Positions 22,407-60,188 of a stretch of DNA of 64,000 nt are shown piece after piece. The position numbers and the translations under genes were made by a program. This DNA comes from an uncultured Gemmatimonadaceae bacterium. Lineage in GTDB: Bacteria; Gemmatimonadota; Gemmatimonadetes; Gemmatimonadales; Gemmatimonadaceae. Where the stretch lies: contig CAVUDW010000003.1 in the NCBI GenBank assembly GCA_963740355.1, forward strand, positions 480,001 to 544,000, in the 5' to 3' direction. How positions within the stretch are numbered: position 1 is the stretch's first letter; the number at the start of each line of letters is the position of its first letter. The notes below the pieces were generated by a model that saw nothing but the letters and a program-made list of their open reading frames with translations, was not told the DNA's origin and made no database searches.

Positions 22407-22477
22407 GAAATGCTCCGCAGTGAATCGTGATGTGATGTCGCTCTATGTGGTACGAGCACCGCCGTGATCAGACTGTA

Positions 22478-23125: not shown

Positions 23126-23140
23126 TTTACGACGCATAAA
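23126..23140. promoter_or_regulatory. Operator TTTACG-ACG-CATAAA
   Basis: Matches five other copies; about 120 bp upstream of the Met-rich lipoprotein. Confidence 0.7.
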
Positions 23141-26122: not shown

Positions 26123-26162
26123 CCACGACTACCCCGCGTTCGATGCCAGCATAGTCGTCGTG

Positions 26163-40161: not shown

Positions 40162-40549
40162 GAAAGGAAAGGTACATGTGCCGTGACGGCCTCCGGCACC
40201 CGAGGACACGACGCCGAACACTCCGACCCGGCCCGCTGTCCGGCTCTGTCGACCCCCATGAATGGAGGGAACCCGGGGTCCTGCCGATGAATCGCGCTCG
40301 GGCCGTCCGGTGATTCGCACGGGCGCCCGCGGCGAATGCGCGGACAAACCGGGATTCCGCGGCCGTCACCCGGGACGCAAGGCAGCACCGCGTGCGCCGT
40401 CCTCGGCAGCCGCTTCAGTGTCAGCGGCGTCCGTCACCGAAGCATCGCGGCCGCCGAGCCCCCCAGGAACACAGCGGACACTCGCGCATCGCTGCCACGC
40501 AGCGTTGCGGACGCCACCATCGGCGCCGCTCCTGTTGAAATGGAGCCGC

Positions 40550-41164
40550 ATGTCCACCCCCCCGCCTTCCCTCGGTGCGCTGCTCGCGGCCGTCACCGCC
40601 GCGTGCACTCCCGCCGACCGCGACGCCGCCGTTAGCGCCCTCTTCGTCGCGGCGCGGCCGGTCCTGATCCCGGTCTGCGACGCCGTGCTGCAGCGCGCTC
40701 CCGGCGCGCATTGGCACTCGGCCGAGGATCTTGCCCAGGATGTCTTGGTCGACACCCTCCCCGCCCTGCAGCGCGGGGCGTGCCCGACGACGACCAACAA
40801 TGGCCTCGTGCGCTTTCTGCGCACGGTGGCCACGCGTCGCCTCATCTCGGCCGCACGGCCGCAGACGGGTGTGACGCCATTCGACCTCGCGGAGGTCGTG
40901 CTGGCGCTGCACGCCGCCAATGCGGTGGGGGATGATGCCGATGATCCCGACGCGCAGCGGCGCGCCGAAATCCGCCAGCTCTACAACGTCGTACTCGGCG
41001 AAGTACCAGAGGCGTTCGCGACCACGTGGCGCGTCGTCGTCGAACAGGAACTGCCGAAGACCGCTGCCGCCGCCGCACTCGGGATCGACCGCGGCACGGT
41101 GCACCGCCACGTCACGGCGGTCCGTACGCATCTCGCGTCTCGGCTCAGCGCCTTCGCGCCGTGA
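40550..41164 (+). CDS. Divergent ECF-type sigma-70 factor
   Basis: Region 2 SAEDLAQDV...FLRTVATRRLI; region 4 HTH AAAALGIDRGTVHRHV. Confidence 0.7.
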   Translation: MSTPPPSLGALLAAVTAACTPADRDAAVSALFVAARPVLIPVCDAVLQRAPGAHWHSAEDLAQDVLVDTLPALQRGACPTTTNNGLVRFLRTVATRRLISAARPQTGVTPFDLAEVVLALHAANAVGDDADDPDAQRRAEIRQLYNVVLGEVPEAFATTWRVVVEQELPKTAAAAALGIDRGTVHRHVTAVRTHLASRLSAFAP

Positions 41165-41266
41165 TGGAGCACGTCAGGCGGGCACGCGGACCACCGCGAC
41201 CGCAACACCGGTGCGATAGGAAGGTGAAGCCACTCCGGCTCACGCCACCACTCGCACCCCACGGAC

Positions 41267-42310
41267 ATGCCCCACGCCGAACCCTCGGACGACGCCGACG
41301 CAGGCGACGAACCGTCGCCACCGTCCGCACTTCCCGCGCACGCGACACCGCTGGTGGACCCAGATGACGATCCGCGCGCCACGCTGGCGCGCATCCTTCA
41401 GCACTTGGTCGTCGCCTTCGGCGCCGACGCAGGTCCACAGGTAGATGGCATGCTCGCGCAGCTGGCGCTGTCGCTGACACGCTATGTCCACGCGCCCTAT
41501 CCGATGCGCGCCACGATCATCGGACCGACCGGCGCCGGTAAGACCCGCCTGTTGAATCTTCTCGCGTCCATCGTGCGCGTTCCCGCAGTCGTCATCCCGA
41601 TCACCGACATCAGCGAAACCGGATGGAGGGGAGCCCAGATTGGCGAGGTGTGCCGAGTGCTGCACCCGTCACTCTTCGTGCACGACCCCTTCACGCACCG
41701 AGTGCAGGTGCCACTTCGTACAGTGGCACTCCCGTCCATCGTGATGCTCGACGAGATCGATAAGGTCGCACTCGTTCACGATGCCGTACGCCTCGAGGGA
41801 TCAGCTGCCGCTGCACGCATCGGCAAGATGCATTCGCTCATGCCCTTGCTCGATCCCGAGAGTGAGATGGTCGTGCAGTACGACGACGCGCGGGCACCGT
41901 TTCGGTTCACCCTGAGGAACAGCATCGTCCTGTGCGCGGGTGCCTTCAGCATGGCACCAGCACATCGTCCGCTCACGCCGACAGATCTGGTCGACGTTGG
42001 GCTGACCAGGGAGCTGGTCGACAGGATGGGACCTGTGTGGATGCTTCCGACGCCGGGGCACACGCTGCGAGCCACCATCGCGCGCGAGGCGCTCCGCGAC
42101 GTCGAAGCGTTCGCGCTGCGCCTCGGCGTCACGGTTACGGGCATCGAAACGTTCGTCGCGGCGCAGCCAGCCCCCGACAACAGTCGCGACTACATCGGAC
42201 TGCGCGGACTACTGCACTTCGTCACGCAGCGTGTGCTGGCGGCCGTCGCCGACGCGCTCACGCAGCAGCGCACGCACATCGATCTGATGGCACTGCGAGG
42301 TGACGACTGA
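41267..42310 (+). CDS. ClpX/HslU-like AAA+ ATPase
   Basis: GPTGAGKT, SETGWRG pore loop, MLDEIDK, LCAGAF, RELVDRM, GLRGL. Confidence 0.8.
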   Translation: MPHAEPSDDADAGDEPSPPSALPAHATPLVDPDDDPRATLARILQHLVVAFGADAGPQVDGMLAQLALSLTRYVHAPYPMRATIIGPTGAGKTRLLNLLASIVRVPAVVIPITDISETGWRGAQIGEVCRVLHPSLFVHDPFTHRVQVPLRTVALPSIVMLDEIDKVALVHDAVRLEGSAAAARIGKMHSLMPLLDPESEMVVQYDDARAPFRFTLRNSIVLCAGAFSMAPAHRPLTPTDLVDVGLTRELVDRMGPVWMLPTPGHTLRATIAREALRDVEAFALRLGVTVTGIETFVAAQPAPDNSRDYIGLRGLLHFVTQRVLAAVADALTQQRTHIDLMALRGDD

Positions 42311-42510
42311 TGCCCACCACAGCGCTCGAGCGTCTCGTGGATCGTCCGTATGAACGTGCACCGTGGTTGCCGCGCGCGCCGTGGTGCGCCGCCGTCGTGA
42401 AACGGACGGGCGCACCGCACCCCCGCCGCAGCCGCGACACGCTGCGGCATCCGTCGACAACTCGACGGTCGTGAAGACACCGCACCGGCGCATGCCGAAG
42501 GAGCACACGC

Positions 42511-42897
42511 ATGACCCTCATCCCGATCACATCGTCGAAGCCGCTCACATCACTGCTCGCCATGCAGCACGACGCACTGTCGCTGGATGCTTACGTCGGA
42601 ATCCCGGCAATGACGTCGTTCCTCCAGTGCTGGCGCACGCACGTTGCGCGCACCGTCTCCTTTCTCCATCGAGGGTTGCGCTGTCCGCGACTCACGTGTG
42701 AGGAATTCACGGAGGAGGCGCTTGTCATGGTCGCCGCACAGCTCCATGACTGCACGGCGCGTTCTGACTCCGCGCTGCACGCATGGGTGTCGGTTCGCAC
42801 AACGCAAGCGGTGCTGGAGTTGCAGTTCGATGCTCGGAGACACGCACCTGCCGAAAAGCGCGCACACTGTGATGGCGGCACAGGCTGGGCCGCGTGA
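42511..42897 (+). CDS. Hypothetical protein, sigma region-2-like only
   Basis: AAGGAG RBS; EEFTEEAL..V...L..C...LHAWV resembles sigma region 2. Confidence 0.5.
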   Translation: MTLIPITSSKPLTSLLAMQHDALSLDAYVGIPAMTSFLQCWRTHVARTVSFLHRGLRCPRLTCEEFTEEALVMVAAQLHDCTARSDSALHAWVSVRTTQAVLELQFDARRHAPAEKRAHCDGGTGWAA

Positions 42898-42925
42898 TGC
42901 AGACCACGGTGTGCGTGAGGCATCG

Positions 42926-43396
42926 ATGACGCACCGACGGGGAACACATCCGGCCATGCCTGCGGCCGCGTCCGTGCGGCCTGTACCACGGACGTCGGCG
43001 CGCAAGCGCGAAGCGTCGGAGCTCGAAGCGAAGCTGCTCGACGCCTTCAAGGTGCCGCCACCGCACTTCGTGGAGCAGACACCGGTGGTCCCGCTGGGTC
43101 ATGTGCCGGACGAGGCGCCACGAGTGACGGCGCTGCCGACGCGGCGTGCATGCCTGACCGTGACGCATCAGGACGCGGCGCTGCTCGTCGTGGCCCTGGG
43201 TGCAACGCTGCGGAACGGTGCTGGTGCCAATACCACGCTGAGCGCAGAGGAGGTGACCCGCGTACGACGCGTCGCTGCACTGCTCCACCGAATCCTGCCT
43301 TCGGCGGCACGCGATGCCATCCGGCAGCGTGCGGCGCGTATGTCGCCCGACTCGCACGCGCGAGCGCCGAGTGTCGCGGGTAGTGGCGCCCGCTGA
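42926..43396 (+). CDS. Hypothetical protein
   Basis: GAGG RBS, co-oriented within cluster. Confidence 0.45.
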   Translation: MTHRRGTHPAMPAAASVRPVPRTSARKREASELEAKLLDAFKVPPPHFVEQTPVVPLGHVPDEAPRVTALPTRRACLTVTHQDAALLVVALGATLRNGAGANTTLSAEEVTRVRRVAALLHRILPSAARDAIRQRAARMSPDSHARAPSVAGSGAR

Positions 43397-43428
43397 CGAC
43401 GACGGCACCAGCGAGGACAAAGATCGCA

Positions 43429-43653
43429 ATGACGAGACAATGCCACACCGCCGCGATAACACAGTGGAAGGACAGCGATGCGCACCTGCATCGCGTCGAG
43501 CGCCTGCGTACCCGCGCGATGGCCACGAGGGCTGTCTGTCCGGGAACGAGCGAGATGCCGGAACATCGGCATGATCTGAGAGACAACGCACGAATCGCCG
43601 ACGCGAGCGTCGGGACAGTCGTCACCACACCACGCATGGAGTTCATCACATGA
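43429..43653 (+). CDS. Hypothetical small protein
   Basis: ATGA overlap with the next gene; no motif. Confidence 0.3.
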   Translation: MTRQCHTAAITQWKDSDAHLHRVERLRTRAMATRAVCPGTSEMPEHRHDLRDNARIADASVGTVVTTPRMEFIT

Positions 43654-44387
43654 CCGCTCGAATCCCGTCCGGCCCCGCACTCTCACGCGTGGATGACACG
43701 CAGCAGGCCGTCAATCGCGGCGTCGCCGCACTGATCGAGGAAACGCAAAGCGCATTGCGTACCGTCGCCGGCAGCCTGCTCGCGAGTCTGCTCGAGTATC
43801 CCTACTTTGGGCTGGCGCACGGGCACGCCACCCTGCGCGAGACGATCAGTCACGAGTGGCGCGGAGGACCGGCCGTCACTGGCATCCACCTGTGGCTCCG
43901 CCGCGTGGTCGCACACACGCTCGCGGTGGCGGATGCCGTCACGGCGGCCGACCGGGATACTGCAGTCCTCGCGGCAATCTGTCGCGAATTCGGCGCGTGT
44001 GCCGTGACACCGCCCGATGGCATCACGGTCTTCTCGCTCGCCGATCATGGGCCGCTGCCTGGCGCTGCGGCCTTCATGACGCGCCTGCAGGAGGCGATGA
44101 ATCGGCACGATCACATCGCCGCGGCCGAGGATGACGAGCTCACCAGGGTCATCGCGACGGTGCGCGAGCTCGAGCTGCATCCGTGGGTTCCTGTCACGTC
44201 GGTGGCCGCTGCCGTCGCAGTGGCTGGCCGCGCGAGTGCTGCGGCGCTGATCGGCGTGGCGGAGTCCACGGGGCCGCTCCGGCTGTCACGTCGTCACTCG
44301 CTCGCGAAGATCTCGTTCGGCCCACTCGGTGCAGTCGACACGCCTGCGCTGCAGACGGCTGGCGCGTCAGAGGCGCTGCCGTTCTGA
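43650..44387 (+). CDS. Degenerate HD-domain-like (YhaM-like) protein
   Basis: HEWRGG...AHTLAV...DRDTAVLAAICREFG aligns by eye to HH..GGL..H...DRDLL.AG.LLHDIGK with HD replaced by RE. Confidence 0.5.
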   Translation: MTARIPSGPALSRVDDTQQAVNRGVAALIEETQSALRTVAGSLLASLLEYPYFGLAHGHATLRETISHEWRGGPAVTGIHLWLRRVVAHTLAVADAVTAADRDTAVLAAICREFGACAVTPPDGITVFSLADHGPLPGAAAFMTRLQEAMNRHDHIAAAEDDELTRVIATVRELELHPWVPVTSVAAAVAVAGRASAAALIGVAESTGPLRLSRRHSLAKISFGPLGAVDTPALQTAGASEALPF

Positions 44388-45122: not shown

Positions 45123-45578
45123 TTATCGGTCGAGATCACGGATCAGCGCCTTCATCTCGCCGATCTCGCGCACCTGTGCCTCGATGATTCCATCGGCCAG
45201 CTTCCGCACGCGAGGATCGGAAATGTGCGCGCGCTCGCTCGTCAGGATAGCAATCGAGTGATGTGGGATCATCGCCCTCATCCACGACACGTCGCCCACG
45301 GTCGCCTGGCTGCGCACAAGCCAGAGCGCGACGGCGAACACCACGGCGCTGCCGCCGAAGATCCAGGCGTTCAGTCGGCTATCGTTGTACATGCCGCGCA
45401 TGAACACCAGCATGATCACCGCCATCGTCGCGCCCATCACCAGGGCCATCCAGGCGCGCGTCTGGCTGAAGAACACATGATCCAGCGCATAGGTATTCAG
45501 GTACATCAAACCGAACATGACCACGGTTGAGACTGCGATCATGCCAGCGAAGCGCCGGTACGGACTAGTGGAATTCAC
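45123..45578 (-). CDS. DUF305 domain membrane protein (copy 2)
   Basis: Near-identical to copy 1; GTG start. Confidence 0.88.
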   Translation of the reverse strand: MNSTSPYRRFAGMIAVSTVVMFGLMYLNTYALDHVFFSQTRAWMALVMGATMAVIMLVFMRGMYNDSRLNAWIFGGSAVVFAVALWLVRSQATVGDVSWMRAMIPHHSIAILTSERAHISDPRVRKLADGIIEAQVREIGEMKALIRDLDR

Positions 45579-45761
45579 TCTTTACGTCCTGTGCATTGTT
45601 GAGTGACGATTGCGCGACGCTGTTACCCGGTGGCCGCTGTTCGAGTGTGTCTGGTGGCAAGCCTTGCGCCAGTCGCAGACGCATCCGCCCGGACGGCTTC
45701 CGGGTGCCGCGCAGCTACCACACCAGGCGAGCGCCACTGTCGAGAAACCTGCGGTGCCACG

Positions 45762-47868
45762 CTACAACTTCGCGCGCCGCAGGAGTTGCGCGTTCGCGGC
45801 CACGATGATCGTGGAGAGTGACATCAGACCCAGCCGCCATCGCCGGCGTCAGCGTGAGTCCCCACCGCGCGAATACCCCAGCCGCAAGCGGAATCGCGAC
45901 GACGTTGTATCCTGCGGCCCACCACAGATTCTGTACCATCTTCCGATAGCTGGCGCGTGAGAGCGTGATGATACGCGCCACATCGCGTGGATCACTGCGC
46001 ACCAGCACCACGTCGCCCGCCTCGACCGCGACGTCGGTGCCGGCACCAATCGCGACACCGACGTCAGCCGTTACCAGCGCTGGCGCATCGTTCACGCCGT
46101 CGCCCACCATCGCGACGCGCGTTCCGGCCTTCTGCAGCGCTTCGATCTTCGACGCCTTGTCCTGTGGCAGCACCTGCGACAACACGGTCGTGATGCCGAG
46201 TGTCTTCGCGACGGCGTCGGCCACCGCCTTCGAGTCGCCAGTCATCATCACCACGTCGATGCCCGCCTTCTGCAGCGCCATCACCGCGGCAGCCGACTCA
46301 GGCCGGACCGCGTCCGCGACCGCGAAGGCCGCGCGCGCCTGACCACCTTCGACCAGGTAGATCACGCCCTGGCCCTTCGCGGCTGCATCACGCTCGAACG
46401 CCGAGAGGGCCTGAGACGGCTGGACCTTCAGCTGTGCCAGCAGGTTCGGCCCGCCGACCGAGAGTGCACGACCTTCCACAGTCGCGCTGACACCGTGCCC
46501 AGGGATGGCCATGAAGGTCGTCGCCACCGGCACGTCGAGCTTTGCATCAACCGCACTCTGGACGATGGCACGTGCGACGGGGTGCTCGGCGTCGCGCTCG
46601 ACGCTTGCGGCGAGGCGCAGCGCATCTGCCTCAGTCATGCCATCGAGCACCTGCGTCGCGACCACGCGGTGCGCGCCGAGCGTGAGCGTGCCGGTCTTGT
46701 CGAAGACTACGGTCGTGAGATTCCTCGCGTCCTCGAATCCGACGCGATCACGCACCAACAGCCCATTCCGCGCGCCGAGCGTGGTCGAGATCGCAAGCAC
46801 CAGCGGCACGGCGAGGCCGAGGGCGTGCGGGCACGCGATCACGAGCACCGAGACCAATCGCTCCACCGCCATGGCCGGCCCGGCACCGAGGCTGATCCAG
46901 ACCACGAACGTCATTAGGCCGCATCCCAGCGCGACCCAGGTCAACCAGAATGCGGCGCGATCCGCCAGTGCCTGTGCGCGCGACTTCGAGTTCTGCGCCT
47001 GCTCCACCAGCCGCATGATCCCCGCGAGCGCGGTGCGGGTCCCGGTCCCAGTGACCTCGATTCGCAGCGACCCGGAGCCGTTGACCGTGCCCGCCAGCAC
47101 CTTCGCCCCGACCGTCTTCCCGACCGGGGCCGATTCGCCCGTCACGAGTGCCTCGTTCACGGCGCTTTCGCCGGCGCGCACCACGCCATCGGCAGGAATC
47201 GCTGCCCCAGGGCGGACCAGCAGCATGTCCGCATCGAGCAGCACCGTGACCGGCACATCCTCGAGCGTCTCGGAGGGGCCCTGCCCCGTCACGCGCGTCG
47301 CCATGTCGGGCAGCAATTTCGCGAGCTCGCCCAACGCGCCCTGCGCCTGATTGATCGAGCGCATTTCGAGCCAGTGGCCCAACAGCATGATCGTCACGAG
47401 GGATGCCAACTCTTCCCATAGCGGCATACCGGGAAATCCGAACAGCACTGCCGCGCTGAATGCGAAGGCCACACTGATCGCGAGGGCGATCAAGACCATC
47501 ATCCCAGGCAGGCGGTCGCGGACTTCCTGTAGCGCGCCTCGGAGAAACGGAAGGCCCCCATAGGCGAACACCGCCGAGCCGAACAGCGCCGGGACGTACG
47601 TGACGCCGGGGAACGCCGGCGCCGTGTAGTGCAGCGCGCTCTGCAGCATGTGGCCCCACACCAGCGTCGGAATCGTCAGCACGAGCGAGATCCAGAACTT
47701 GTCCCGGAACATCGCCACGGAGTGACCGGCATGCCGACTGTGCCCGCTCGCCATGGCGTCGTGGCCACCGTGCGGCTCGGGCGTTCCGCTGGGTGGCGAG
47801 TGAGACATGCCATGCCCCATCGGCGTGTCGGCGGGCATTGAATGCCCGTGCATCGCATGTTCGTCCAT
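45762..47868 (-). CDS. copB: CopB-like P1B ATPase (copy 2), +1 frameshift in CCC at 45829-45831 near the C-terminus
   Basis: [20 protein letters not shown]; removing one base restores LMSLSTIIVAANAQLLRRAKL*. Confidence 0.88.
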
Positions 47869-47951: not shown

Positions 47952-47966
47952 TTTATGCATCATAAA
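47952..47966. promoter_or_regulatory. Operator TTTATG-CAT-CATAAA
   Basis: Dyad between the divergent copB copy 2 and the BlaI-like gene. Confidence 0.75.
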
Positions 47967-48007
47967 GGATCGCGTTCCTTCCCGCGCCGAACTCTCGAGG
48001 TCCCTCC

Positions 48008-48499
48008 GTGGTGAAACGCAAGTCCCCCAGCGCCGGAACCGGCGGCTCGGCAGGATCACCCGCAGCTCGTGTACCCGTGACTCCACAGTTGCAGGACACG
48101 GTCCGTCTCTCCGCGGCAGGGCTTGCGAAGGTGCTTGGCGATCTCGAGGCGCGCGTGATGCGCGCCGTGTGGGCGCTCGCGCGTCCGGTCAGCGCTCGGA
48201 TCGTGCATGAGGAGGTTGCACGCACGCACGCCGTCGCGCTGCTGACGGTGGTCACCGTACTCAACAAGCTCGTGACCAAGCGCATGCTCATTCGCAAGTC
48301 ACAGGATGGGCTGTTGCACTTCGAGGCGTTGATGAGCGAGCAGGCGTTCATGGCGCATGCCAGCCGACGCGTCGTGGAAGGGATCCTGTCATTCGATCCT
48401 GATGCCGTGGCTGCGTCGTTCGTCGACGTCCTCGCGTCGCGCGATCCCGCGCAACTCGAAGAGCTCGCGCGCCTCATACAGCAGCGCTTGGCGCCCTGA
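48008..48499 (+). CDS. BlaI/MecI/CopY-family transcriptional repressor
   Basis: LGDLEARVM..VW...TV.TVLNKL..K winged HTH; no cysteines. Confidence 0.9.
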   Translation: MVKRKSPSAGTGGSAGSPAARVPVTPQLQDTVRLSAAGLAKVLGDLEARVMRAVWALARPVSARIVHEEVARTHAVALLTVVTVLNKLVTKRMLIRKSQDGLLHFEALMSEQAFMAHASRRVVEGILSFDPDAVAASFVDVLASRDPAQLEELARLIQQRLAP

Positions 48500-48536
48500 C
48501 GGCCACGCCGAGCCGAATACTGTGACGCCCCCCGTC

Positions 48537-49580
48537 ATGCGCCGCGAGTTCCTCCGCCGGACCGTGGAAGGTCATGAGGCGCGACATCGGCGTCGCGTGC
48601 TGGTCGTGACCGGCATCCTCACACTCGTCGCGATCAGTCCGGTGCTAGGGCACCACCTGACCACACGACTGACCTCCGCGTTCGCGGGCTACGAGCACAT
48701 TTGGATCGTGTGCCTCGTTGCGCTGCACGAGTTGCTGGCGCCGGTGCATACGGCATTTCACATCTTGCTGCTGGCTGGGATTACTTACGCCGTGGCCGAC
48801 CGCACGCGAGCATGGTACCGCGTTCGGCGAACGCTGCGGGTGCTCGAGTCGCGACCGGCGACGCCTGACGACACCGTCTGGTCGGCCAGTGAAGCGAGCG
48901 GCATCCCGGTTGACGTGCTCCGACTGGCGAGCGGGCTGCCGAATCCTGCATTCACGACTGGCTGGCTAAGCCCCGTCATCTACGTCGATACGCAACTTCA
49001 ATCGGCGCTGACGGAGCGGCAACTCGCCGCGGTCCTGCTGCACGAGTATGCGCACGTGCTTCGTCGTGACCCTGCGCGACTGACACTGTTGCGCGCGCTC
49101 GGCTGCCTGTTGTTCTGGCTCCCCGCGTTACGCCGCCTCGCACGGGACGTCGCCGACGATGCCGAGATTGCGGCCGATAATTTTGCAGCGCGAGGCGACC
49201 CGGTCGTGCTGGCGTCAGCGATCCTGCGGCTCGCACAGTGGCCTTCACTCGACGGGCGACAGGCACAGTCCGACCTCCCCGACAACGGGCGCAGCGTCGT
49301 CGGATTTCAGCGCGACGTGATGCTGGACCGCCGCATTCACCGACTGCTCGGCAACGACGCGCCGATTGTGACGCATGTGACGTGGCGATCCATCTTTGCG
49401 GCCAGTGTCGGGTTGATGCTTGCCTGGTCGTCGGGGATGGCAGTCGCCCATCCCATGACCGACGCGAGCAAGCACTGCACCCATCAACATGAGTGGGCGT
49501 ACGAGCACCTGTTCTGCCTTGCGGAGCGCCCGGATGGGCAGGATACGATTTGCCCGCACGAGCGCCGCCTCGCGCCCTGA
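48537..49580 (+). CDS. M56 (BlaR1/MecR1-like) membrane metallopeptidase
   Basis: AFTTGWLSP.I, LLHEYAHV.RRDP, E..AD, L..RI.RL; His/Cys-rich tail; no penicillin-binding domain. Confidence 0.88.
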   Translation: MRREFLRRTVEGHEARHRRRVLVVTGILTLVAISPVLGHHLTTRLTSAFAGYEHIWIVCLVALHELLAPVHTAFHILLLAGITYAVADRTRAWYRVRRTLRVLESRPATPDDTVWSASEASGIPVDVLRLASGLPNPAFTTGWLSPVIYVDTQLQSALTERQLAAVLLHEYAHVLRRDPARLTLLRALGCLLFWLPALRRLARDVADDAEIAADNFAARGDPVVLASAILRLAQWPSLDGRQAQSDLPDNGRSVVGFQRDVMLDRRIHRLLGNDAPIVTHVTWRSIFAASVGLMLAWSSGMAVAHPMTDASKHCTHQHEWAYEHLFCLAERPDGQDTICPHERRLAP

Positions 49581-49677
49581 ACACCGTCGGAGCGGTCAAC
49601 GTGACATCAGGCTCGCGACACAAAGCTGCTACATCCGGATCACCCCCTGCCGTTCAACCATCTCGCACGAGTTTTCA

Positions 49678-50205
49678 ATGCTCGCCCTCCTCGGCATTCT
49701 CGCGGCGCTCAGCGCTTCGTCCGCCCATCCCACTGCTGAGGGCATGCCCCGCGCGTCAGCAACGGCGCCGCGCCTCGGTATGATCGCCACGGTTGTCGCG
49801 AGCTCAACCGCCCTGGCCGTCAGTGATTCCGCAGACGTGGCTCAGGTGGTCGCGGCCTTCCATGCCGCCCTTGCCGCCGGCGACGGCGCGGCAGCGCTCC
49901 GGTTGCTGGCTCCCGACGCCATCATCCAGGAGAGTGGTGGCGTCGAGTCTCGAGCCGACTACGAGAGCCATCACCTGTCCGGCGACATCGAGTTCGCGCG
50001 GGCCGTGCCGTCGACGCGGAGCGCACTCCGTGTCGTCACCGACGGCAATGTTGCATGGATCTCGAGCACCAGCGTGACGAAGGGCACGTTTCGCACTCGC
50101 GCCATCAATTCGGTCGGCGCCGAGCTCATGATCCTGTCACGCACGAGCGGCACGTGGCGCATCCGAGCGATTCACTGGTCGTCTCGAGCAGCCAAGGGGG
50201 CGTGA
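49678..50205 (+). CDS. Exported NTF2/SnoaL-like (DUF4440) protein
   Basis: V.AFH.AL..GD...LLAPDA.I.E.G..E, W.I.AIHWSS. Confidence 0.8.
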   Translation: MLALLGILAALSASSAHPTAEGMPRASATAPRLGMIATVVASSTALAVSDSADVAQVVAAFHAALAAGDGAAALRLLAPDAIIQESGGVESRADYESHHLSGDIEFARAVPSTRSALRVVTDGNVAWISSTSVTKGTFRTRAINSVGAELMILSRTSGTWRIRAIHWSSRAAKGA

Positions 50206-50240: not shown

Positions 50241-50281
50241 TTGACGCGGCGTAAAGGGCTCAATAGTTTAGGCACCGTAAA
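50241..50281 (+). promoter_or_regulatory. Sigma70 promoter overlapped by two operator copies
   Basis: -35 TTGACG (50241), 17 bp, -10 TAGTTT (50264); dyads TTGACG-CGG-CGTAAA and TTTAGG-CAC-CGTAAA. Confidence 0.65.
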
Positions 50282-50403
50282 GCCGGATGGGTTCGCTTGC
50301 CTCGACGTTCGTGAATCGATGTGCAGGAATCCAGGCACGCGGTATCGGTCATCGCAGCGTGGTGACCAGCGTCTGACGGCTTCACGTTCGCGCGGAGAGC
50401 GTT

Positions 50404-51204
50404 ATGAGCTTCTCGTCTGCTGCTGCAAGGTTGGATGCGATTGCGCCGTTGAATTCCCTGCTGCGTCTGCGATATCAGCGGCGGTTCCGTACAGCACATG
50501 GGGCAGGTTGCTGGTCCGGCGTATACCCGAGCTTTTCCACGGCGCTCCAGGCTGCGCCGCGATCCGCACCTGTGGGATACGATCACTCGAGCGCCGCCAC
50601 GCTCTACGATGACATGCTGGATCGCGTGCAGCCGAAGGACTATCCAGTGCTCTACTGGCTTCGTCGCTGTCTGCGCCCGGGCGCGTCGCTCTTCGATTTC
50701 GGTGGGAGCGCTGGCGTCTCGTTTTACGCGTATCGTCGCTATGTCGCCGATCTGGCACCTGATCCATGGATCGTGTGCGACACGCCCTCTGTCGTAGAGG
50801 TGGGCCGCGCGCGCGCCGCCCGTGGCGATGCGAATCAACTGCGATTCACGAGTGAGTTCGCTGACGCAAGTGGATGCGACGTGCTGTTTACTGCGGGCAC
50901 ACTTCAGTATGTGGAGCCGTCATTCCACGACATGGTGACAGGGCTTCCGCGAAAGCCGGATCACATCATCGTGAACATGCTGCCAACGCTTCCCGACAGA
51001 ACGATCATCACGCTGCAGAACATCGGTGTGAGTTTCTGCCCTTACCGAATCATCGAGCGAGGCGCGCTTGCTCAATCGCTTGAATCCGTGGGCTACGCGC
51101 TCGAAGATTCGTGGGTGAACCCCGAGGGGCGTACAAAGCTTCCGTATGCGGAAGGGGTGCCGGAGATCACGTGGATCGGCCAGTATTTCAGACGCACAAG
51201 CTGA
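50404..51204 (+). CDS. Putative SAM methyltransferase (TIGR04325-like)
   Basis: DYPVLYWL, FDFGGSAG..FY, W.VCD.P, GTLQY, TLQNIG. Confidence 0.75.
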   Translation: MSFSSAAARLDAIAPLNSLLRLRYQRRFRTAHGAGCWSGVYPSFSTALQAAPRSAPVGYDHSSAATLYDDMLDRVQPKDYPVLYWLRRCLRPGASLFDFGGSAGVSFYAYRRYVADLAPDPWIVCDTPSVVEVGRARAARGDANQLRFTSEFADASGCDVLFTAGTLQYVEPSFHDMVTGLPRKPDHIIVNMLPTLPDRTIITLQNIGVSFCPYRIIERGALAQSLESVGYALEDSWVNPEGRTKLPYAEGVPEITWIGQYFRRTS

Positions 51205-51247: not shown

Positions 51248-51742
51248 CTATCTCGGCGCGGCAGTCTGCGGCCTCGGACAGGGATGCGAGTAGTGGATGT
51301 GTCGCACCACCCACGTCGAGTCGCGACGCACCCACACCATAGTCTCATTGCCGGCGGCCGTGATCGATTTACCCTTGACTGTCGCGCGGATGTCGTACTC
51401 GCGCGTGACGAGCGCCATGTCCGGTCCCGCGGTGACGCGCACGTTGCTGAAAGTCGCGGTGGCGTTGTCGAACTCCTCGACTTCGGGACGGAGGTGATTG
51501 TCCCAGACATCCTGCAGGCCGACGTTGCGGACGCTGTGCTCGTACAACACGACGTCGTCGGCCAGCATCGCCTTCAGAGCGACGAGATTCTTCGATGTCA
51601 TCGCGACGTTCTAGCGCTCGACGGCCGCCCGCACCGCCGCCTCTGGGGCTTGCGCACCGAGCCTATCGCCGGTCGTACCAAGCACGGCGGCTCCGAGGGC
51701 AAGGACCAGTGCGCGATGGCGAAGGAATTGGCGACTCGACAC
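51248..51742 (-). pseudogene. Exported NTF2/SnoaL-like protein with in-frame TAG at 51611-51613
   Basis: GGAG RBS + GTG 51742, signal peptide, AAVRAAVER*NVAM, then DVVLYE, GNETMVW, W.V.HIHYS. Confidence 0.75.
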
Positions 51743-51789: not shown

Positions 51790-51886
51790 TTTATGCGCCA
51801 TAAACTCGCTGGCGGTTCTGCGCATGTCAAGCGACGCGGGCGCATTGACGGCGGCAGCGTCAAGATACTATTTTATGACGCGTAAA
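51790..51886. promoter_or_regulatory. Two operator copies in the divergent promoter region
   Basis: TTTATG-CGC-CATAAA (51790-51804) and TTTATG-ACG-CGTAAA (51872-51886). Confidence 0.75.
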
Positions 51887-51956
51887 GCTGTGCGCCTGAT
51901 CGTGATTGCGCCGGTCGGCCGAAATTGCTGCTCCCTTTCTGCCCCTCGTTGATCTG

Positions 51957-53405
51957 ATGGTCGTTTCGATATCTGTGCGACGGAGCCGTACGGCCGCACC
52001 GTTGATATTGCCGGGCCTGCTCGCGCTGTTCGTGGTCGGGTGTGCCTCGGTTCCGGCGCAGAATGGGCTGGAGAGCGTTCAGCGCGATACTCGGCAACGC
52101 AGCGGCTTGCGGGTCGACTGGATCCATGAAGCGCGCGCCGACTCCGCGCTGACGGCGTGGGCCGCCCGAACCCTGAAGGGTGAAGTCAGCGTCGATTCGG
52201 CCGTGCAGGTTGGCCTGCTGCGCAGCAAGCGCCTGCAAGCCTCCTTCGAGGATCTGGGCCTTGCCCGGTCGGATCTGGTGCAGGCCGGCCTCCTGGCGAA
52301 TCCGGTCGCCACGGCTGGCGCGGCGTTCGCGCGCGGTGGCGGTACGGGCATCACGTCATTCGGCGTCGCGCTGCCGTTCATTGACTTCCTGCAGCGTCCA
52401 CTGCGGCGACGCGTCGCCGAGCAGCAATTCAATGCGGCACGGGCGCGCATGAGCGCAGCGGTGGTCCAGCTTGCCGCAGAGATCCGGACCGCGTACGTCG
52501 ACGCGCAGGCGGCGCAGCAGATGCTGGAACTGTGGCAGGGCGTGAGCGCGACCCTCGACGCGAGCGCCACGGCCGGCGAGGCGCTGCACGCGGCGGGGAA
52601 CTTGTCCGACTTCGACCTGGCGCAGCAACGTGCCCTGGCGGGAGATGCGCGGCTGGACGTGTTCACGGCGGAGGCGGAGGTGCGGACGACACGCGCGGAA
52701 CTCGAGCGCGTGATGGGCGTGAGCGGCGATCAGGCCTGGACTCTGACGCCGCGACTCCTCGCTCCGACGGATTCAAGCCGTGACATTACCAGCCTGATCG
52801 AGACGGCGATGGGCCGGCGACTCGACCTGCGCGCCACCCGAAGCGACGCGAACGCCGCAGCGCAGCGGCTCGGCCTCGCACGGGCCTTCGCCCTGTTGCC
52901 CGACGGCTCACTTGGCGCGACGTACGAGCGCGATCCGGATGGCACGTTCGTGGGCGGCTCGATCTCGGTGCCCGTGCCGCTGTTTGATCATGGGCAGGGC
53001 CGGATCTCACGCAATCGGGCGCTGCTGCGGCAGGCGCTCGCGCAACACGATGCACTTGTGCAGGACATCGTCGGTGAAGTACGTCACCTGACGGCGAGGC
53101 TCGTGTCCGCTCAGGCCCGCGAAGAACACCTCCGTCGCGTCGTACTGCCCCTCCGGCATCAGGCCGTGGTCGAATCGCAGAAGTTCGCCAACGCGATGGA
53201 GCACAGCGTCTTCACGGTGCTGATGGTCAGGCAGGCGGAAATCGATGCCGGCAGCGCCTACATCGCGTCGCTGCGCGACTACTGGAACGCGCGCGCGTCG
53301 CTCGAGCGTGCGGTGGGCGGCTCGCTGGCCCCACTGAGCACCGAGGAACGTGCCGACCTGACCGCGCGGCCCGACAGTACCGGGCGAGCGGCCCCACCAC
53401 GCTGA
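51957..53405 (+). CDS. TolC-family lipoprotein of a copper-oxidase operon
   Basis: Lipobox VVGC; LQA.FE.LG.A.SDLVQAGLL.NP, PLFD.GQ, LRDYW.AR. Confidence 0.88.
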   Translation: MVVSISVRRSRTAAPLILPGLLALFVVGCASVPAQNGLESVQRDTRQRSGLRVDWIHEARADSALTAWAARTLKGEVSVDSAVQVGLLRSKRLQASFEDLGLARSDLVQAGLLANPVATAGAAFARGGGTGITSFGVALPFIDFLQRPLRRRVAEQQFNAARARMSAAVVQLAAEIRTAYVDAQAAQQMLELWQGVSATLDASATAGEALHAAGNLSDFDLAQQRALAGDARLDVFTAEAEVRTTRAELERVMGVSGDQAWTLTPRLLAPTDSSRDITSLIETAMGRRLDLRATRSDANAAAQRLGLARAFALLPDGSLGATYERDPDGTFVGGSISVPVPLFDHGQGRISRNRALLRQALAQHDALVQDIVGEVRHLTARLVSAQAREEHLRRVVLPLRHQAVVESQKFANAMEHSVFTVLMVRQAEIDAGSAYIASLRDYWNARASLERAVGGSLAPLSTEERADLTARPDSTGRAAPPR

Positions 53406-53417
53406 GCCGAGGACTTC

Positions 53418-54776
53418 ATGACCGATTCACCCATCTCCCGACGCGCACTGCTCGGGCAGGGCCTCACTGCGCTGACGGCAGGTGCCGCCGCGGCATCGCT
53501 CGTCCAGGCACAGCACGTTGGCATGGTGATGCCCCCGGCCGCCGCGCCTGCCCCGGCGCCGACTGCGGGACGGGCGCTACGACGGCGCCGCGCGTTCACG
53601 CCAGGGCAGCCACATCGCGACTACGCGCCGGTCATCACGCCGAACGGGGTCACGCTTCCGTTTCGCATCGTCGACAACGTCAAGGTGTTTCACCTGATCG
53701 CCGGCCCGGTCGACCACGAGTTTGCGCCAGGCCTGGCCGCCTCATGCTGGGGCTACAACGGGCGCACCATCGGTCCCACGATTGAGGCGGTGGAGGGCGA
53801 CCGCGTGCGCATCTACGTCACGAATCGCCTGCCCGAGCCGACGAGCGTGCATTGGCACGGCATCATCCTGCCCTCCGGCATGGATGGCGTGTCCGGCGTC
53901 AGCCAAGCACCCATCCCGACTGGCGAAACCTTCCGCTACGAGTTCGATCTCGTCCAGCACGGCACGTTCATGTATCACCCGCATTACGACGAGATGACCC
54001 AGCAGGCACTCGGCATGATGGGAATGTTCGTGATCCACGAACGCGGCGCGCGTCGACGGCCAGACAAGGACTTCGTCCTGCTCAGCAGCGAATGGCGCGT
54101 GAAGCTCGGCACGTCGCGTCCGGACCCGAACGAAATGACCGACTTCAACGTGCTCACGTTCAACAGCAAGGCGTTTCCCGGCACGGCACCGCTCGTCGCG
54201 CAGCTGGGTGACGAGGTGCGGATCCGGCTGGGGAATCTCAGTGCGATGAGTCACCATCCCATCCACGTGCATGGACTGCAGTGGCGCGTGACGGCGATGG
54301 GCGGCGAACCTCTGCCTGTTGCCGCGCAGAGCTCGGAAGTCACCACGCTCGTGCCGGTCGGTACGACACGCACGGTGGAGTTCACCGCTACGAATCCCGG
54401 CGATTGGGCGGTGCATTGCCACATGACGCATCACACGATGACGCAGATGGGGCACAGTGGCGTGAACCTGATCGGCGTCGATGAGACGAAGATCGATGCG
54501 GCCACGGCCTCCGTCCTGCCCCAGTACATGACCATGGGTCAGACTGGCATGGGAGACATGGGCGCGATGGGTATGTCCGTGCCGAAGAACTCAATCCCGA
54601 TGCTTGGCGCACGCGGACCCAAGGGTCACATCGACATGGGCGGCATGTTCACCATGATCAAGGTGCGCGAGCGAGTCACCGGCCAGACCGATCCGGGCTG
54701 GTACGCCGACCCACCTGGTACTGTCGCGCAAGCGGCGACGCCGGACGAATTGCGACGGGATGGCATCGTCGCGTAG
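53418..54776 (+). CDS. Tat-exported multicopper oxidase
   Basis: SRRALL; HWHG, MYHPH, HPIHVHG, HCHMTHH. Confidence 0.93.
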   Translation: MTDSPISRRALLGQGLTALTAGAAAASLVQAQHVGMVMPPAAAPAPAPTAGRALRRRRAFTPGQPHRDYAPVITPNGVTLPFRIVDNVKVFHLIAGPVDHEFAPGLAASCWGYNGRTIGPTIEAVEGDRVRIYVTNRLPEPTSVHWHGIILPSGMDGVSGVSQAPIPTGETFRYEFDLVQHGTFMYHPHYDEMTQQALGMMGMFVIHERGARRRPDKDFVLLSSEWRVKLGTSRPDPNEMTDFNVLTFNSKAFPGTAPLVAQLGDEVRIRLGNLSAMSHHPIHVHGLQWRVTAMGGEPLPVAAQSSEVTTLVPVGTTRTVEFTATNPGDWAVHCHMTHHTMTQMGHSGVNLIGVDETKIDAATASVLPQYMTMGQTGMGDMGAMGMSVPKNSIPMLGARGPKGHIDMGGMFTMIKVRERVTGQTDPGWYADPPGTVAQAATPDELRRDGIVA

Positions 54777-54875
54777 CGCGCACGCGACGAGCGTGCAGCC
54801 CATTTTTAGTGCAAAGCCCAGGCACGGTCGGCGTTCCGTCGTCGCACCATCGCATTTCACTCCAGCCCCTTTCCG

Positions 54876-55262
54876 ATGACACGCTCTTCCCTGCTCACGC
54901 GCGCTGTGCTCCTGTCTGTCGCCATCGCGGCTCCGCTGTTCGCCCTCGCGCACCCGCGACTGCTCGCGTCACTGCCTGCCGCGAACAGCCGCATCAAGGC
55001 CGCGCCTGCCGTGGTGCGCCTCACCTTTCAGGAGCGGCTCGAACCCGCGATGAGCCGCATTTCCGTGGTGCACGCGGGCACGCACACCGTCACGATGGGT
55101 GCCGTCACTTCCGACAGTGCGGACAACAAGACGCTCGTTGCGGCACTCAAGACGCCGATGGGCGACGGTACATACGTGGTGACGTGGCAGGCGGCGGGGG
55201 CGGACGGGCATCCGATGCGCGGCACCCTTACGTTCACAGTCGATGCCGCGGCACCGAAGTAA
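54876..55262 (+). CDS. copC: Copper resistance protein CopC
   Basis: Mature N-terminal HP.L..S.PA; G.Y.V.W....DGH...G. Confidence 0.92.
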   Translation: MTRSSLLTRAVLLSVAIAAPLFALAHPRLLASLPAANSRIKAAPAVVRLTFQERLEPAMSRISVVHAGTHTVTMGAVTSDSADNKTLVAALKTPMGDGTYVVTWQAAGADGHPMRGTLTFTVDAAAPK

Positions 55263-55319
55263 CGTGCGCGTCCGACCCGTGCTGCGGGGGCGCTCAGTGC
55301 GACCTGCGCCGCGCTCGAG

Positions 55320-56260
55320 GTGACCGAACCCTTCGGCGTCGAGGCGCCGGGCTACGTCACGATCCGATTCCTGCAGTACGCCGCGCTGCTCGTCGTGATC
55401 GGCGCTACGGTCTTCGGGACGGCGGTTCTGAGCCGGATCCGGACTGAGCTTCCACAAGAAGTGGTGGATGCTGCGCGCGGAAAGTCCGCACGTATTGGCT
55501 TCGTCGCCGCGCTGGCGCTTGGCGTGACCGTGATGCTGCGATTGGTCGCGCAGTCGTACGCCATGGGCATGGAGAGCGTGACGGCGGATCGTGCGATGCT
55601 GGTCACGATGATCACGGCGACCGAGTGGGGACGCGCGTGGCTCCTCGAAGCGGGGGCGATCATGGTCGCCATGGTCGCATTCATCGGAGCGCGCCGCGGC
55701 CGACGCCTCGATTGGCGAGTTGCCGTCGCCGCATGCTGCGCCCTCGCAGTCGCGATGGCGATGTCCGGCCACGCTGCCGCCATGCCGAACCGGCGTTGGC
55801 TCGCGATTCTCGCGGACGCGCTGCACGTGCTCGGTGCGGCCGGCTGGCTCGGCAGCCTGCTCATCCTGGTGATCGTCGGCCTGCCGACAGCGGGAAGCGG
55901 AGATACAACGGGCCGCAGTCGCCACGTCGCAACGCTCGTGACGGCATTCTCGCCGGTGGCGCTCACTCTGCCGCTCTGACCGCCCTCACAGGCAGCTTCG
56001 CGGCATGGATTCACGTGGCCGCGCTTCCTGCCCTCTGGCAGACGCGGTACGGCCAGGTCCTGCTACTCAAGCTGGCATTGCTTGCCATCACGGCGGGCAT
56101 TGGCCTGTACAACTGGAAGCGGGGCACGCCGTCGCTCAGCGCTACCGCGCAGGGCCCGCAGCACCTCCGGCGAGCTGCCACTGTTGAGCTTGTCGTCGGC
56201 GTCGGCGTGCTGCTGGTGACGGCGATCCTCGTGGCGACCCCGACACCAATGGATCTCTGA
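55320..56260 (+). pseudogene. copD: Copper resistance protein CopD, frameshift near 55965
   Basis: SGHAA, D.LHVL.A.GWLGSL, FS..AL, then next frame TRYG..LL.KL, N, E. Confidence 0.82.
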
Positions 56261-57349: not shown

Positions 57350-58231
57350 CTATGTCGCGCGTCCCGCGTACGCGAGTTCATTCCGCGGCGGGAGTGGGCG
57401 GGCCTGGCGGCGGTGCTGCGTCGACGGCAGGAAGCACCACAGCGCGGAGCAGCGTCGCACTTCGCGCTCAATCGTCGGCCAGCTCATCGCCAGTCCGACG
57501 AAGAGCGTCGCGACCATCATGGAACGCCATGTCGCCCGCGAGGGCCGCTTTCCCGTGCGGACGCTCTGCACCGCGACGTAGAGCCAGCCGGCGAGCGTGA
57601 GCGCGACCGCGGCGTACGTCATCCAGCGATACGCGCCAGCAAATAGCGCGACAGCTCCGCCGACACTGGTCAACGCAATCGCCGGGATGGCCAACGGCAC
57701 GACACAGCACACGCCGCACGCCAGCGCGACCGCCGCCGCGCTGCCGGCCGCGGTGCTTGGCAATCGACCCGCCCAGCCCCGCCGGTCGGCTCCCGAAACA
57801 TCAGGGCTATCAGCCCCATGTCGACTCTCGTGCGGCTCAGCGGCGCAGCGCGTGTCGCGCGTCGCCGTGCTGCAGTCACAGTCGACCGCGCAGGACGCAG
57901 CACCGGTCGCATCGACCGGCTCACCCGGCGCACCAACGAGGAACGGCGCGAACAGCGCGTCCATCGCCGCCGGCGGCACGTCTGGCGCGAGAATCGCCAG
58001 TCGCGTCGCGTCGACACGCGCCTCGACCGTGAAGTGCAGGAACGCGCAGCATTCCCGCTCCAGCAACACCAGCGTATCGACGCGCTCGCGCATCGCCGGC
58101 GCGAATGTCAGCGTGAGCGTTCGTCCCGCGCGCTCGACGTCGCGCAGCCCCTCGGCGTTCATCGCCGCGATGGTGAGCGCGCGAATCCTCGCCGCGGTGT
58201 CATCGAGCGTACAGGCTATCGGTGCTGTCAT
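57350..58231 (-). CDS. MerT-like metal transporter fused to an N-terminal Cys domain
   Basis: PIACTL...ERECCAFL.F; CAVDCDC linker; TM ACGVCCVVPL. Confidence 0.65.
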   Translation of the reverse strand: MTAPIACTLDDTAARIRALTIAAMNAEGLRDVERAGRTLTLTFAPAMRERVDTLVLLERECCAFLHFTVEARVDATRLAILAPDVPPAAMDALFAPFLVGAPGEPVDATGAASCAVDCDCSTATRDTRCAAEPHESRHGADSPDVSGADRRGWAGRLPSTAAGSAAAVALACGVCCVVPLAIPAIALTSVGGAVALFAGAYRWMTYAAVALTLAGWLYVAVQSVRTGKRPSRATWRSMMVATLFVGLAMSWPTIEREVRRCSALWCFLPSTQHRRQARPLPPRNELAYAGRAT

Positions 58232-58305
58232 CTGGCGCTCTCCCGTCGGACGCGAGCCACACGGTGGTGCGGGGTGCACCCCATGTATTGCGTCGTACGA
58301 CGGGA

Positions 58306-58336
58306 AGCGTACATCTTCAAGTTACTTGAAGTTCAA
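58306..58336 (-). promoter_or_regulatory. MerR-type promoter/operator
   Basis: -35 TTGAAC, 19-bp spacer, -10 TACGCT; perfect dyad CTTCAAG-TTA-CTTGAAG at 58315-58331. Confidence 0.85.
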
Positions 58337-58386
58337 GCCCCCCACCACGCCCGTCGGCAGCAGCCATCACGGCGGAGAGAGACCAG

Positions 58387-58857
58387 ATGGCATCGTCCGC
58401 GGAGCGCGACGCGCTGCGAATCGGCGAGCTGGCCGAGCGCACCGGCACCAACACGCCCACCATCCGCTACTACGAGGAGGTCGGCCTGCTGCCGCATGCC
58501 GCGCGTCAGGCCGGCGGCCAGCGCCGGTATGGCACGCCGGACGTCGAACGGCTGCAGTTCATCCGGCGCTGTCGCGAGTTCGGCTTCCCGCTCGAACAGG
58601 TGCGCGAGCTCGTGAGCCTCTTCGGTGATTCGCGGCGCAACTGCACCGATGCACGCGACATCGCGCAGGCGCATCTCACGCAGGTGCGCGCGAAGATGAC
58701 GGAGCTGCGCGCGCTCGAACGCGACATCGCGGCGTTCGTGCACCGGTGTGACGCCGAATGTGTCGGCGGGCCGGGGCCTGACTGTGTGCCCCTCGTGCAG
58801 TTGGCCGCGCAGGGCAGGACGCACCGCACGCGACCGACCCGGCGCGTGCACGCATGA
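58387..58857 (+). CDS. MerR-family metal-responsive regulator
   Basis: IGELA.RTG..TIRYYEE.GLL, L.FIRR.R..GF, Cys in NC and C...C......C. Confidence 0.92.
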
Positions 58858-59546: not shown

Positions 59547-60188
59547 CTACAGATGCTCGTCGATGCGCGCGTAGGTGCCAGTGGTGATGAGCGTGATCAG
59601 CACATCACTCGTGCCGCGATTGCGCCAGTACCACCCATGGTTTCCGTTGAACCGAGCGGCCAGATCGCCGGAATCAGCGGCTGCAGCCTGCCCCTTCTTG
59701 TAGCTCACGAACCAGTTCTTCGGCGCATTTGTGGAATCACCGTGCATGTCGAAATTCACCACGCCCCCGGTGACGGTCCATCGGTAGCCGGTCTTCGTCC
59801 CGGCCGGCATCACGAGCTTGATCTCGCCACCCTTGTTCGGCGGCAGCGTCACGCGTGTGGTGTCGGTGCGGACGGCCAACGTCCCGGCCGCCGCAGGCAC
59901 GGACGCCGCATCAGCCGGTGATCCGCGACCCGCTTCCGCCGCCGCAATCACCGAATCGGCGGACGCCTCTGCCGCGGCGTTGCTCGCGGCCTCCTCCGCC
60001 AGCGCGAGCTTGACCTCGCCCATCTGCGTCAGGCCGAGCATCCGACCAATGCCTGTTGGGTCCTTGCCGTACTCCGCCGGCAACACGCAGGTGATAAGCA
60101 GCACCGCCGCCACCGCCACGGCGAGGAGGGTCGAGCGGAGCAGCGACGCACTGGACGGCGCCACCGGAGTCGAGGGCGATGCGGTCAT
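59547..60188 (-). CDS. Membrane-anchored protein associated with HupE/UreJ
   Basis: VLPAEYGKDPTGIG..LGL; FDMHG, G.HGWYWRN. Confidence 0.75.
   Translation of the reverse strand: MTASPSTPVAPSSASLLRSTLLAVAVAAVLLITCVLPAEYGKDPTGIGRMLGLTQMGEVKLALAEEAASNAAAEASADSVIAAAEAGRGSPADAASVPAAAGTLAVRTDTTRVTLPPNKGGEIKLVMPAGTKTGYRWTVTGGVVNFDMHGDSTNAPKNWFVSYKKGQAAAADSGDLAARFNGNHGWYWRNRGTSDVLITLITTGTYARIDEHL

Follow-up and report, generated by a model that had tools for sequence, protein, structure and literature searches.

A gene pair encoding a BlaI/MecI/CopY-family repressor and an M56 membrane zinc protease was examined in a 64,000-nucleotide stretch of DNA (the window) from an uncultured Gemmatimonadaceae bacterium (GenBank assembly GCA_963740355.1, contig CAVUDW010000003.1, positions 480,001 to 544,000). 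The initial annotation had placed the pair divergent from copB within a copper island, and this description held: the ATPase was of the copper P1B type by TIGR01511 (539 bits; cutoff, 397), with CPH and YN motifs and a start at ATG 47868, and multicopper oxidase and CopC genes lie nearby. The pair and its surroundings have the following elements, in window coordinates.

45715 to 47868, minus strand: copB, a CopB-type copper P1B-ATPase gene, divergent from the pair, with a 3' end that is frameshifted as assembled
47952 to 47966, no strand: predicted operator, TTTATGCATCATAAA, in the interval that separates copB from the repressor gene, overlapping a weak -10 match at 47958 to 47963
48011 to 48499, plus strand: BlaI/MecI/CopY-family repressor, 162 amino acids (Pfam Penicillinase_R)
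48537 to 49580, plus strand: M56 membrane zinc protease, 347 amino acids, with three predicted spans and a BlaR1-like fold
48651 to 48761, plus strand: predicted extracytoplasmic loop of the protease, residues 39 to 75, with H39, H40, H54, C59, H64, H71 and H75
49041 to 49055, plus strand: HEYAH zinc-binding motif, residues 169 to 173; E210 and D214 are also invariant
49449 to 49577, plus strand: predicted extracytoplasmic tail of the protease, residues 305 to 347, with H305, H313, C314, H316, H324, C327, C339 and H341

The repressor matched Pfam Penicillinase_R over the full length of the model (E = 2.8e-19; 70 bits against a cutoff of 22.6), which placed it in the BlaI/MecI/CopY family. Its start codon is a GTG at 48008 or 48011, and the conserved core begins at about 48083. 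The protein had been described as cysteine free and devoid of the CxC metal site of CopY; no cysteine was present among its 162 residues, and none of 74 near-complete repressors of the family had a cysteine within the last 40 residues. The CopY profile TIGR02698 gave 30 bits, below its cutoff of 121.95. A CopY-type sensor was ruled out by the lack of a C-terminal CxC in the repressor. The top match in the PDB was 2g9w (E = 7e-6), which we take to be BlaI of Mycobacterium tuberculosis, and MecI was matched with an E value of 0.036.

The protease gene begins 37 bases after the repressor gene, at ATG 48537, a start that was favored because the closest homologues begin at the same place. The protein passed the Pfam test for the M56 family (49 bits; cutoff, 31) and carried the HEYAH motif, and no transpeptidase or penicillin-binding domain was matched in Pfam, with a 43-residue tail alone following the last span. 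These features agreed with the first description of the protein, as did the C terminus, ending in ICPH after a hydrophobic segment (residues 286 to 304). The NCBIfam BlaR1 profiles gave 20 to 21 bits against cutoffs of 400 to 1200. A beta-lactam sensor was ruled out, there being neither a penicillin-binding domain nor a beta-lactamase among the recurrent neighbors. An AlphaFold2 model had a mean predicted local distance difference test score (pLDDT) of 78.9, falling to about 55 to 60 for the loop and about 50 for the tail. Staphylococcus aureus BlaR1 was the best structural match in Foldseek (E = 7e-4) and also came first in VIA-align (Z, 13.2; root mean square deviation, 5.4; 213 residues aligned), with model residues 5 to 261 lying on residues 24 to 289 of the BlaR1 chain. 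The range ends of this alignment place the conserved G256/F257 near BlaR1 residues 283/284, presumably the autocleavage loop. Family-averaged hydropathy predicted spans at residues ~21 to 38, 70 to 87 and 286 to 304, each flanked by an arginine cluster, and by the positive-inside rule the loop (residues 39 to 70) and the tail probably lie outside the membrane. Hydropathy and charge thus both predicted the extracytoplasmic tail that had been supposed for this protein.

A homologue search yielded 468 matches, and the 120 listed ones, query included, were aligned. The catalytic residues H169, E170, H173, E210 and D214 were each present in 120 of 120 sequences, and so were H313, C314, H324, C327, C339 and H341 of the tail, with H305 in 119 and H316 in 107; the neighboring tail residues D309, E319, W320, E323, E330 and D333 were found in only 4 to 46. 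Conservation of histidine and cysteine in the tail had been a key expectation of the initial annotation and was clearly observed. The annotation had, however, taken the tail alone for the sensor and missed an equally conserved set at residues 39 to 75, where H54, C59, H71 and H75 occurred in all 120 sequences, H39 and H40 in 119 and H64 in 112. A wider set of 58 proteins, each 290 residues or longer (the query and 57 top representatives at 50% identity), was then considered, counting nongap rows. C59 was retained in 54 of 56, C314 in 52 of 56, C327 in 52 of 54, C339 in 47 of 54 and H324 in 48 of 53, with H313 in only 38 of 56; the tail was short in this set, and the spacing of its cysteines varied. 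The tail pattern was present in 76 of 77 complete proteins from genome contigs. No methionine occurs in residues 2 to 261 of the protease, so that the loop, with its His and Cys residues, does not have the two conserved Met residues of the cyanobacterial protease PetP.

A scan of genome contigs gave 116 confirmed loci, of which the best 80 were analyzed; together with the window these made up 81 loci. All of the 80 locus titles named Gemmatimonadota, save for one short contig labeled Acidimicrobiia. The repressor gene lay upstream of the protease gene in 76 of the 81 loci, and the five misses had at most ~100 bases upstream of the protease. The pair is thus kept together, almost only in Gemmatimonadota, in the layout of a BlaIR-type pair: the repressor directly upstream of the protease and a palindrome before the repressor. 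The protease family was found in 35 of 401 genomes of the phylum and in 32 of 95 genomes of the bacterial family to which the window belongs, a tally in which five candidates were scored per genome and which includes the unpublished genome G155, used for no other claim. A tblastn search of 72,556 plasmid records gave no match.

Linkage of the homologues to copper genes was assessed with copper-specific markers (oxidase, CopC, CopD, PcoB, cupredoxin and Csp). Such markers were detected in 51 of 80 loci and in 41 of the 53 whose flank reached 8 kb or more; after dereplication the proportions were 32 of 39 at 70% and 19 of 24 at 60%. As a control, the same markers were found in 2 of 256 21-kb tiles of the window's own genome, one of which was this island, and the four other M56 matches of that genome lie 28 to 576 kb from any marker. 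The expected linkage to copper genes was therefore borne out. Among 35 neighboring P1B-ATPases, 21 had CPH, 7 others YN and 1 CPC only, while 6 had no captured motif; CPH and YN are motifs of copper-type P1B-ATPases. Gene order around the pair varied widely. CopC genes were present in 39 of the 81 loci and DUF4440/SnoaL genes in 33, and no accessory gene occurred in all of them. The recurrent neighbor families were copper-type or unknown, with no beta-lactamase among them.

An unbiased count of dyads upstream of the repressors returned TTTA-N7-TAAA, mostly in the 15-base form TTTAY-N5-RTAAA. The exact palindrome was present in 51 of 70 upstream regions of 330 bases, and in 57 when up to one mismatch was allowed; shuffled sequences averaged 0.035 and never exceeded 1, and no region matched at spacings of 3 to 6 or 8 to 12. 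It stands at a near-fixed distance before the repressor. A further 93 exact sites were found in the loci, none within an annotated gene; these preceded genes for U7 (24), DUF305 (10), DUF4440 (9), CopC (9), U18 (8), TolC (6), Csp (4) and P1B-ATPases (4), and 19 had no assigned gene. The 5.45-Mb genome of the window's own organism holds five exact TTTA-N7-TAAA sites, at 23126, 47952, 50267, 51790 and 51872, all inside the window. Promoter matches overlapping the operators were weak (2 found against 0.8 expected). The sites other than that of the pair, with the predicted targets, are as follows.

51790 to 51804, no strand: predicted operator; the divergent region ahead of the TolC-oxidase-CopC-CopD operon has two, of which this is the first
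51872 to 51886, no strand: predicted operator with the best score in the genome, overlapping a weak -10 match at 51869 to 51874
51906 to 56260, plus strand: predicted target operon, with OEP/TolC, multicopper oxidase (53418 to 54776), CopC (54876 to 55262) and CopD-like (55320 to 56260, frameshifted as assembled) genes
23126 to 23140, no strand: predicted operator lying 25 kb away from the pair and preceding genes for a Met-rich lipoprotein and a Csp-like protein
22035 to 23005, minus strand: predicted targets of the 23126 site, a Met-rich lipoprotein (22478 to 23005) and a Cys-rich Csp-like copper-storage protein (22035 to 22406; TIGR04401 E = 2.5e-11, under its cutoff)
50241 to 50281, no strand: two operator-like sites, a near match at 50241 and TTTA-N7-TAAA at 50267, before a TIGR04325 methyltransferase gene, target uncertain

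The palindrome tracked the pair across genomes. Two or more sites were present in 12 of the 13 pair-bearing genomes versus 1 of the 32 that lack the pair, a comparison of the genomes common to the pair survey and the site survey (handles up to G400, minus G000 and G155). Five genomes that have the pair were chosen; of their 16 sites, 13 lay within ~8 kb of the pair, the others being one site in G134 and two in G138. When five genomes were instead selected for their number of sites, four carried the protease among these sites.

Several observations on the operator sites stand apart from these counts. The two sites before the methyltransferase gene lie in a lower-GC stretch (50241 to 51204) that may be an insertion parting them from their original target. 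In relatives, three unannotated genes recurred behind the operator, namely, U7, U18 and U8 (L032:11115-11981, L015:8262-9635 and L074:433-2082, with relatives). The commonest target was U7 (31 of 81 loci), an unknown, probable outer-membrane gene whose Atlas look-alikes have PF13557 in 23 to 32% of members, and the U7 copy of the window's own genome, at G000:C3:2356590, adjoins CsoR and P1B-ATPase genes.

More distant relatives were sought by a metagenome scan with catalytic-domain patterns, which gave 304 loci, of which 80 (L104 to L183) were kept; two of these are Patescibacteria by source label. Near-complete proteases from 68 loci formed 42 clusters at 70%. Forty of the clusters had a cysteine in a 25-column window around C59, 38 had one where the last span ends or beyond it and both were present in 38, while six equal cytoplasmic windows gave 1 to 15 of 42; the query carries both the loop and the tail cysteine, and hence a small ascertainment bias is possible in this set. 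As one loop Cys and one tail Cys persist in 38 of the 42 distant clusters, the sensor is likely to be loop plus tail, with the tail probably forming only part of it. No CxC was found among the 36 partner repressors listed. A copper marker was present in 16 of 22 distant clusters with at least 5.9 kb of sequence, and a DsbA, DsbD/CcdA or redoxin gene was present in 11, in a tally counted by hand with the neighboring open reading frames scanned in part (205 of 288 picked). The two distant proteins that lacked both cysteines had no copper gene nearby. The metagenome loci were unfit as a copper-free control because they are copper-linked themselves. For 53 distant repressors no one operator was conspicuous; some had a TAC-N5-GTA core (no shuffle comparison).

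Among these loci, five of low GC content (L140, L145, L154, L166 and L168), two of them labeled Patescibacteria, combined the pair with genes for DsbA, DsbD-cupredoxin, HMA and a copper ATPase, and in several a TAC-N5-GTA palindrome preceded the repressor. The lipoprotein-modifying genes Lit and Lgt directly followed distant BlaI/M56 pairs at L107:8936-9712 and L182:8608-9405; genes of this type are linked to copper in Firmicutes.

Taken together, these results suggested that the pair is a proteolytic switch for copper resistance of the type of PetR/PetP (PetRP) of Synechocystis, with copper sensed at the loop and tail, a reading to which we assign a probability of about 0.6. Control of a copper regulon by the pair is, on its own, highly probable; a complete mechanism in which copper binds directly is less so. 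The repressor is predicted to bind TTTAY-N5-RTAAA before its own gene and the copper genes. The loop (C59 and its histidines) and the tail (C314, C327 and C339 with their histidines) would face the periplasm and join as one metal site, with the loop Cys and the first tail Cys as its core. Binding of periplasmic copper there may relieve an autoinhibition of the cytoplasmic zinc site, and the active protease would then cut the repressor and derepress copB, the TolC-oxidase-CopC-CopD operon, the Csp-like gene and the pair itself. In the terms of the initial annotation, tail conservation, copper linkage and the position of the tail stood, the claim of a new mode did not, and that of the tail as the entire sensor is improbable.

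Several observations weigh against this reading. Twelve of the 53 long loci had no copper-specific marker, and other regulators were found near the pair (CsoR in 8 of 81 loci and MerR-family proteins in 5, including one here at 58387). Both sites of G138 are far from its pair, and G097, a 210-contig assembly, has five sites with neither repressor nor protease found there. The genomes are related rather than independent, and some of those in the site survey may overlap the 80 loci. Methionine is the usual periplasmic Cu(I) ligand, and M307 of the tail is not conserved (58 of 120); Met as a tail ligand was ruled out on this count. With a pLDDT of about 50 in the tail, the contact between loop and tail had no support from the single-chain model. 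The distant proteases are mostly without the histidines, and half of those in the 22 clusters stand beside genes for thiol-disulfide enzymes. The four outer cysteines of the local protein could simply pair as two disulfides.

The last two points lead to the main rival, in which repressor, operator and regulon are the same but the signal is the redox state of C59 and a tail Cys, a disulfide switch for periplasmic thiol stress caused by copper. The even number of outer cysteines here, the persistence of one loop and one tail Cys in the distant clusters, often with no His, and the Dsb-type and redoxin genes near the latter fit such a switch. DsbD-type genes were, however, detected in only 6 of 80 loci of the Gemmatimonadota clade, the targets are genes of export, oxidation and storage, several relatives have three outer cysteines, and nine outer histidines conserved at 112 to 120 of 120 would be needless for a pure redox switch; we regard it as unlikely, though deserving the most attention among the alternatives. 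If the cysteines were instead structural disulfides, copper might be read by His alone, at the cytoplasmic face or by an accessory protein (CopC/CopD or a DUF4440 neighbor). PetP answers to copper without any such tail in the available parts of its description, and CopC and DUF4440/SnoaL genes are frequent neighbors; against this, the tail is short with variable Cys spacing and no accessory gene is common to all loci, and this explanation appears improbable.

That the switch answers to another metal or to a wider range of them (Ag, Ni, Co or Zn), through its many histidines, was considered quite improbable. His-rich sites bind several metals, the metal island is wider and includes a HupE/UreJ-family gene, and cation-efflux genes occur in two distant loci, but the genes behind the operator are those for CopC, oxidase, CopB-type ATPase and Csp, and the recurrent neighbors are copper-type or unknown. 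A cross-response of the switch to Ag(I) is possible. Least probable of all was that the pair merely travels with copper islands and that the palindrome belongs to a CsoR or MerR protein. The sites of G097 and the CsoR and MerR genes of some loci would be accounted for, whereas the near-fixed position of the palindrome before the repressor in 51 of 70 loci, its tracking of the pair (12 of 13 versus 1 of 32) and the N5 spacing shared with the PetR box GAC-N5-GTC speak for the repressor of the pair as its owner.

The distant set raised a wider proposal, which we hold tentatively and at somewhat less than even odds, that short M56 proteases with a loop Cys and a post-span Cys form a cross-phylum class of extracytoplasmic copper/thiol sensors reaching from Gemmatimonadota to Patescibacteria. 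A two-Cys clamp between loop and tail would replace the penicillin-binding domain in this class, and the Gemmatimonadota form would add two cysteines and about ten histidines and run a copper-resistance regulon.

The island as a whole also holds a CusA/CzcA-family pump and two OEP/TolC genes, and it has the following further features.

45123 to 45578, minus strand: DUF305 gene, downstream of copB
49675 to 50205, plus strand: DUF4440/SnoaL-like gene, after the protease, with relatives in 33 of 81 loci
51248 to 51601, minus strand: second DUF4440/SnoaL-like gene, divergent from the TolC operon

A second CopB-type ATPase (28039 to 30642) and a second DUF305 gene (31632 to 32087) are close paralogues of those at 45715 to 47868 and 45123 to 45578 and have no operator match. 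Genes frameshifted or split as assembled were copB (45830 region), copD (55976 region), the second copB (28039 to 30642) and a probable phosphoketolase (26119 to 27392); as several genes of the window are affected besides copB and copD, an assembly (long-read) error is likely. Sigma-like, AAA ATPase-like and HD-like open reading frames lie amid the copper genes at 40262 to 44387. At 57350 to 58857, a MerR-family regulator is divergent from a Cys-rich membrane protein without a Pfam match, and DUF4198, HupE/UreJ-family and unannotated genes at 59547 to 61704 form a possible Ni/Co uptake unit of the same island.

The regulatory module is real and well supported. Set against known systems in the literature searched, what is new in it is the control of a resistance regulon, the operator sequence and the site of Cys and His residues; the principle was already published. 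A literature search that left out most subscription journals found nothing on this family in Gemmatimonadota. BlaR1/BlaI and MecR1/MecI of S. aureus share the membrane and zinc-protease fold and the repressor family, but they have a penicillin-binding domain and an operator, TACA-NN-TGTA, of different spacing. One-component repressors of the CopY/CopR type, for which the available parts of PMC7253601 give a C-terminal CxC and the operator KACA-NN-TGTA in CopY, are alike in repressor fold, TAC/GTA-type half site and control of a copper ATPase; the present repressors differ in having no CxC (0 of 74), an N5 spacer rather than the KACA-NN-TGTA core and invariable pairing with a protease. Clostridioides difficile CenIR (PMC13492132) and mycobacterial BlaI/BlaR likewise combine a sensor protease without a transpeptidase domain and an adjacent BlaI. 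Those systems have no assigned signal, and copper is absent from the accessible passages of the CenIR paper, whereas the pair described here has an invariant Cys/His tail and a predicted copper regulon. Since those passages give a transpeptidase domain in only ~6% of M56 proteins, the missing penicillin-binding domain is the norm rather than a distinctive trait; ~94% of M56 sensor proteases are without one, most with no known signal. For the present family, candidate ligands can be named and an operator and its targets predicted, which makes the questions of PetP-type sensing and of M56 signals testable. If the cross-phylum class were true, a large M56 branch without an assigned signal would gain one, and a general copper-resistance regulator would stand beside CueR, CsoR, CopY and CusRS.

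The nearest counterpart is PetR/PetP (Slr0240/Slr0241) of Synechocystis sp. PCC 6803. According to the available portion of Garcia-Canas et al. (bioRxiv 10.1101/2020.07.31.226407), degradation of PetR requires the M48/M56 protease PetP and copper; PetR has no CopY metal sites, binds GAC-N5-GTC and controls four genes, and the outer loop of PetP is the proposed sensor, with two loop Met residues as the proposed ligands. A commentary (PMC7896320) called the copper-sensing mechanism of PetRP open, and PMC10141476, as far as its accessible text goes, states that PetRP drives no copper-homeostasis response and leaves the role of the heterotroph relatives unresolved. The initial annotation had presented a copper-sensing mode distinct from CueR, CsoR, CopY and CusRS; because PetR/PetP is a proven copper-triggered BlaI/M56 switch, the principle of proteolytic copper sensing is not new. 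On the published description, with no PetP sequence compared, the two systems share a repressor without CopY sites followed by an M56 membrane protease without a beta-lactam domain, from the same two Pfam families, and also a palindrome with a 5-base spacer, a link to copper and an outer loop before the catalytic domain. PetP differs in having four predicted spans, two loop Met residues and no outer tail described, against three spans, a Cys/His loop and a Cys/His tail here. PetRP is cyanobacterial, is linked to petE/petJ and controls four photosynthesis-linked genes through GAC-N5-GTC, while the present pair belongs to Gemmatimonadota and is predicted to control copper resistance through TTTAY-N5-RTAAA. 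If this assignment is true, proteolytic copper sensing is not confined to a photosynthetic switch but also serves copper resistance, in a phylum common in soil and fresh water. The Gemmatimonadota pair would thus work like PetRP while lacking its defining features, and it is neither a CopY nor a canonical BlaR1 system.
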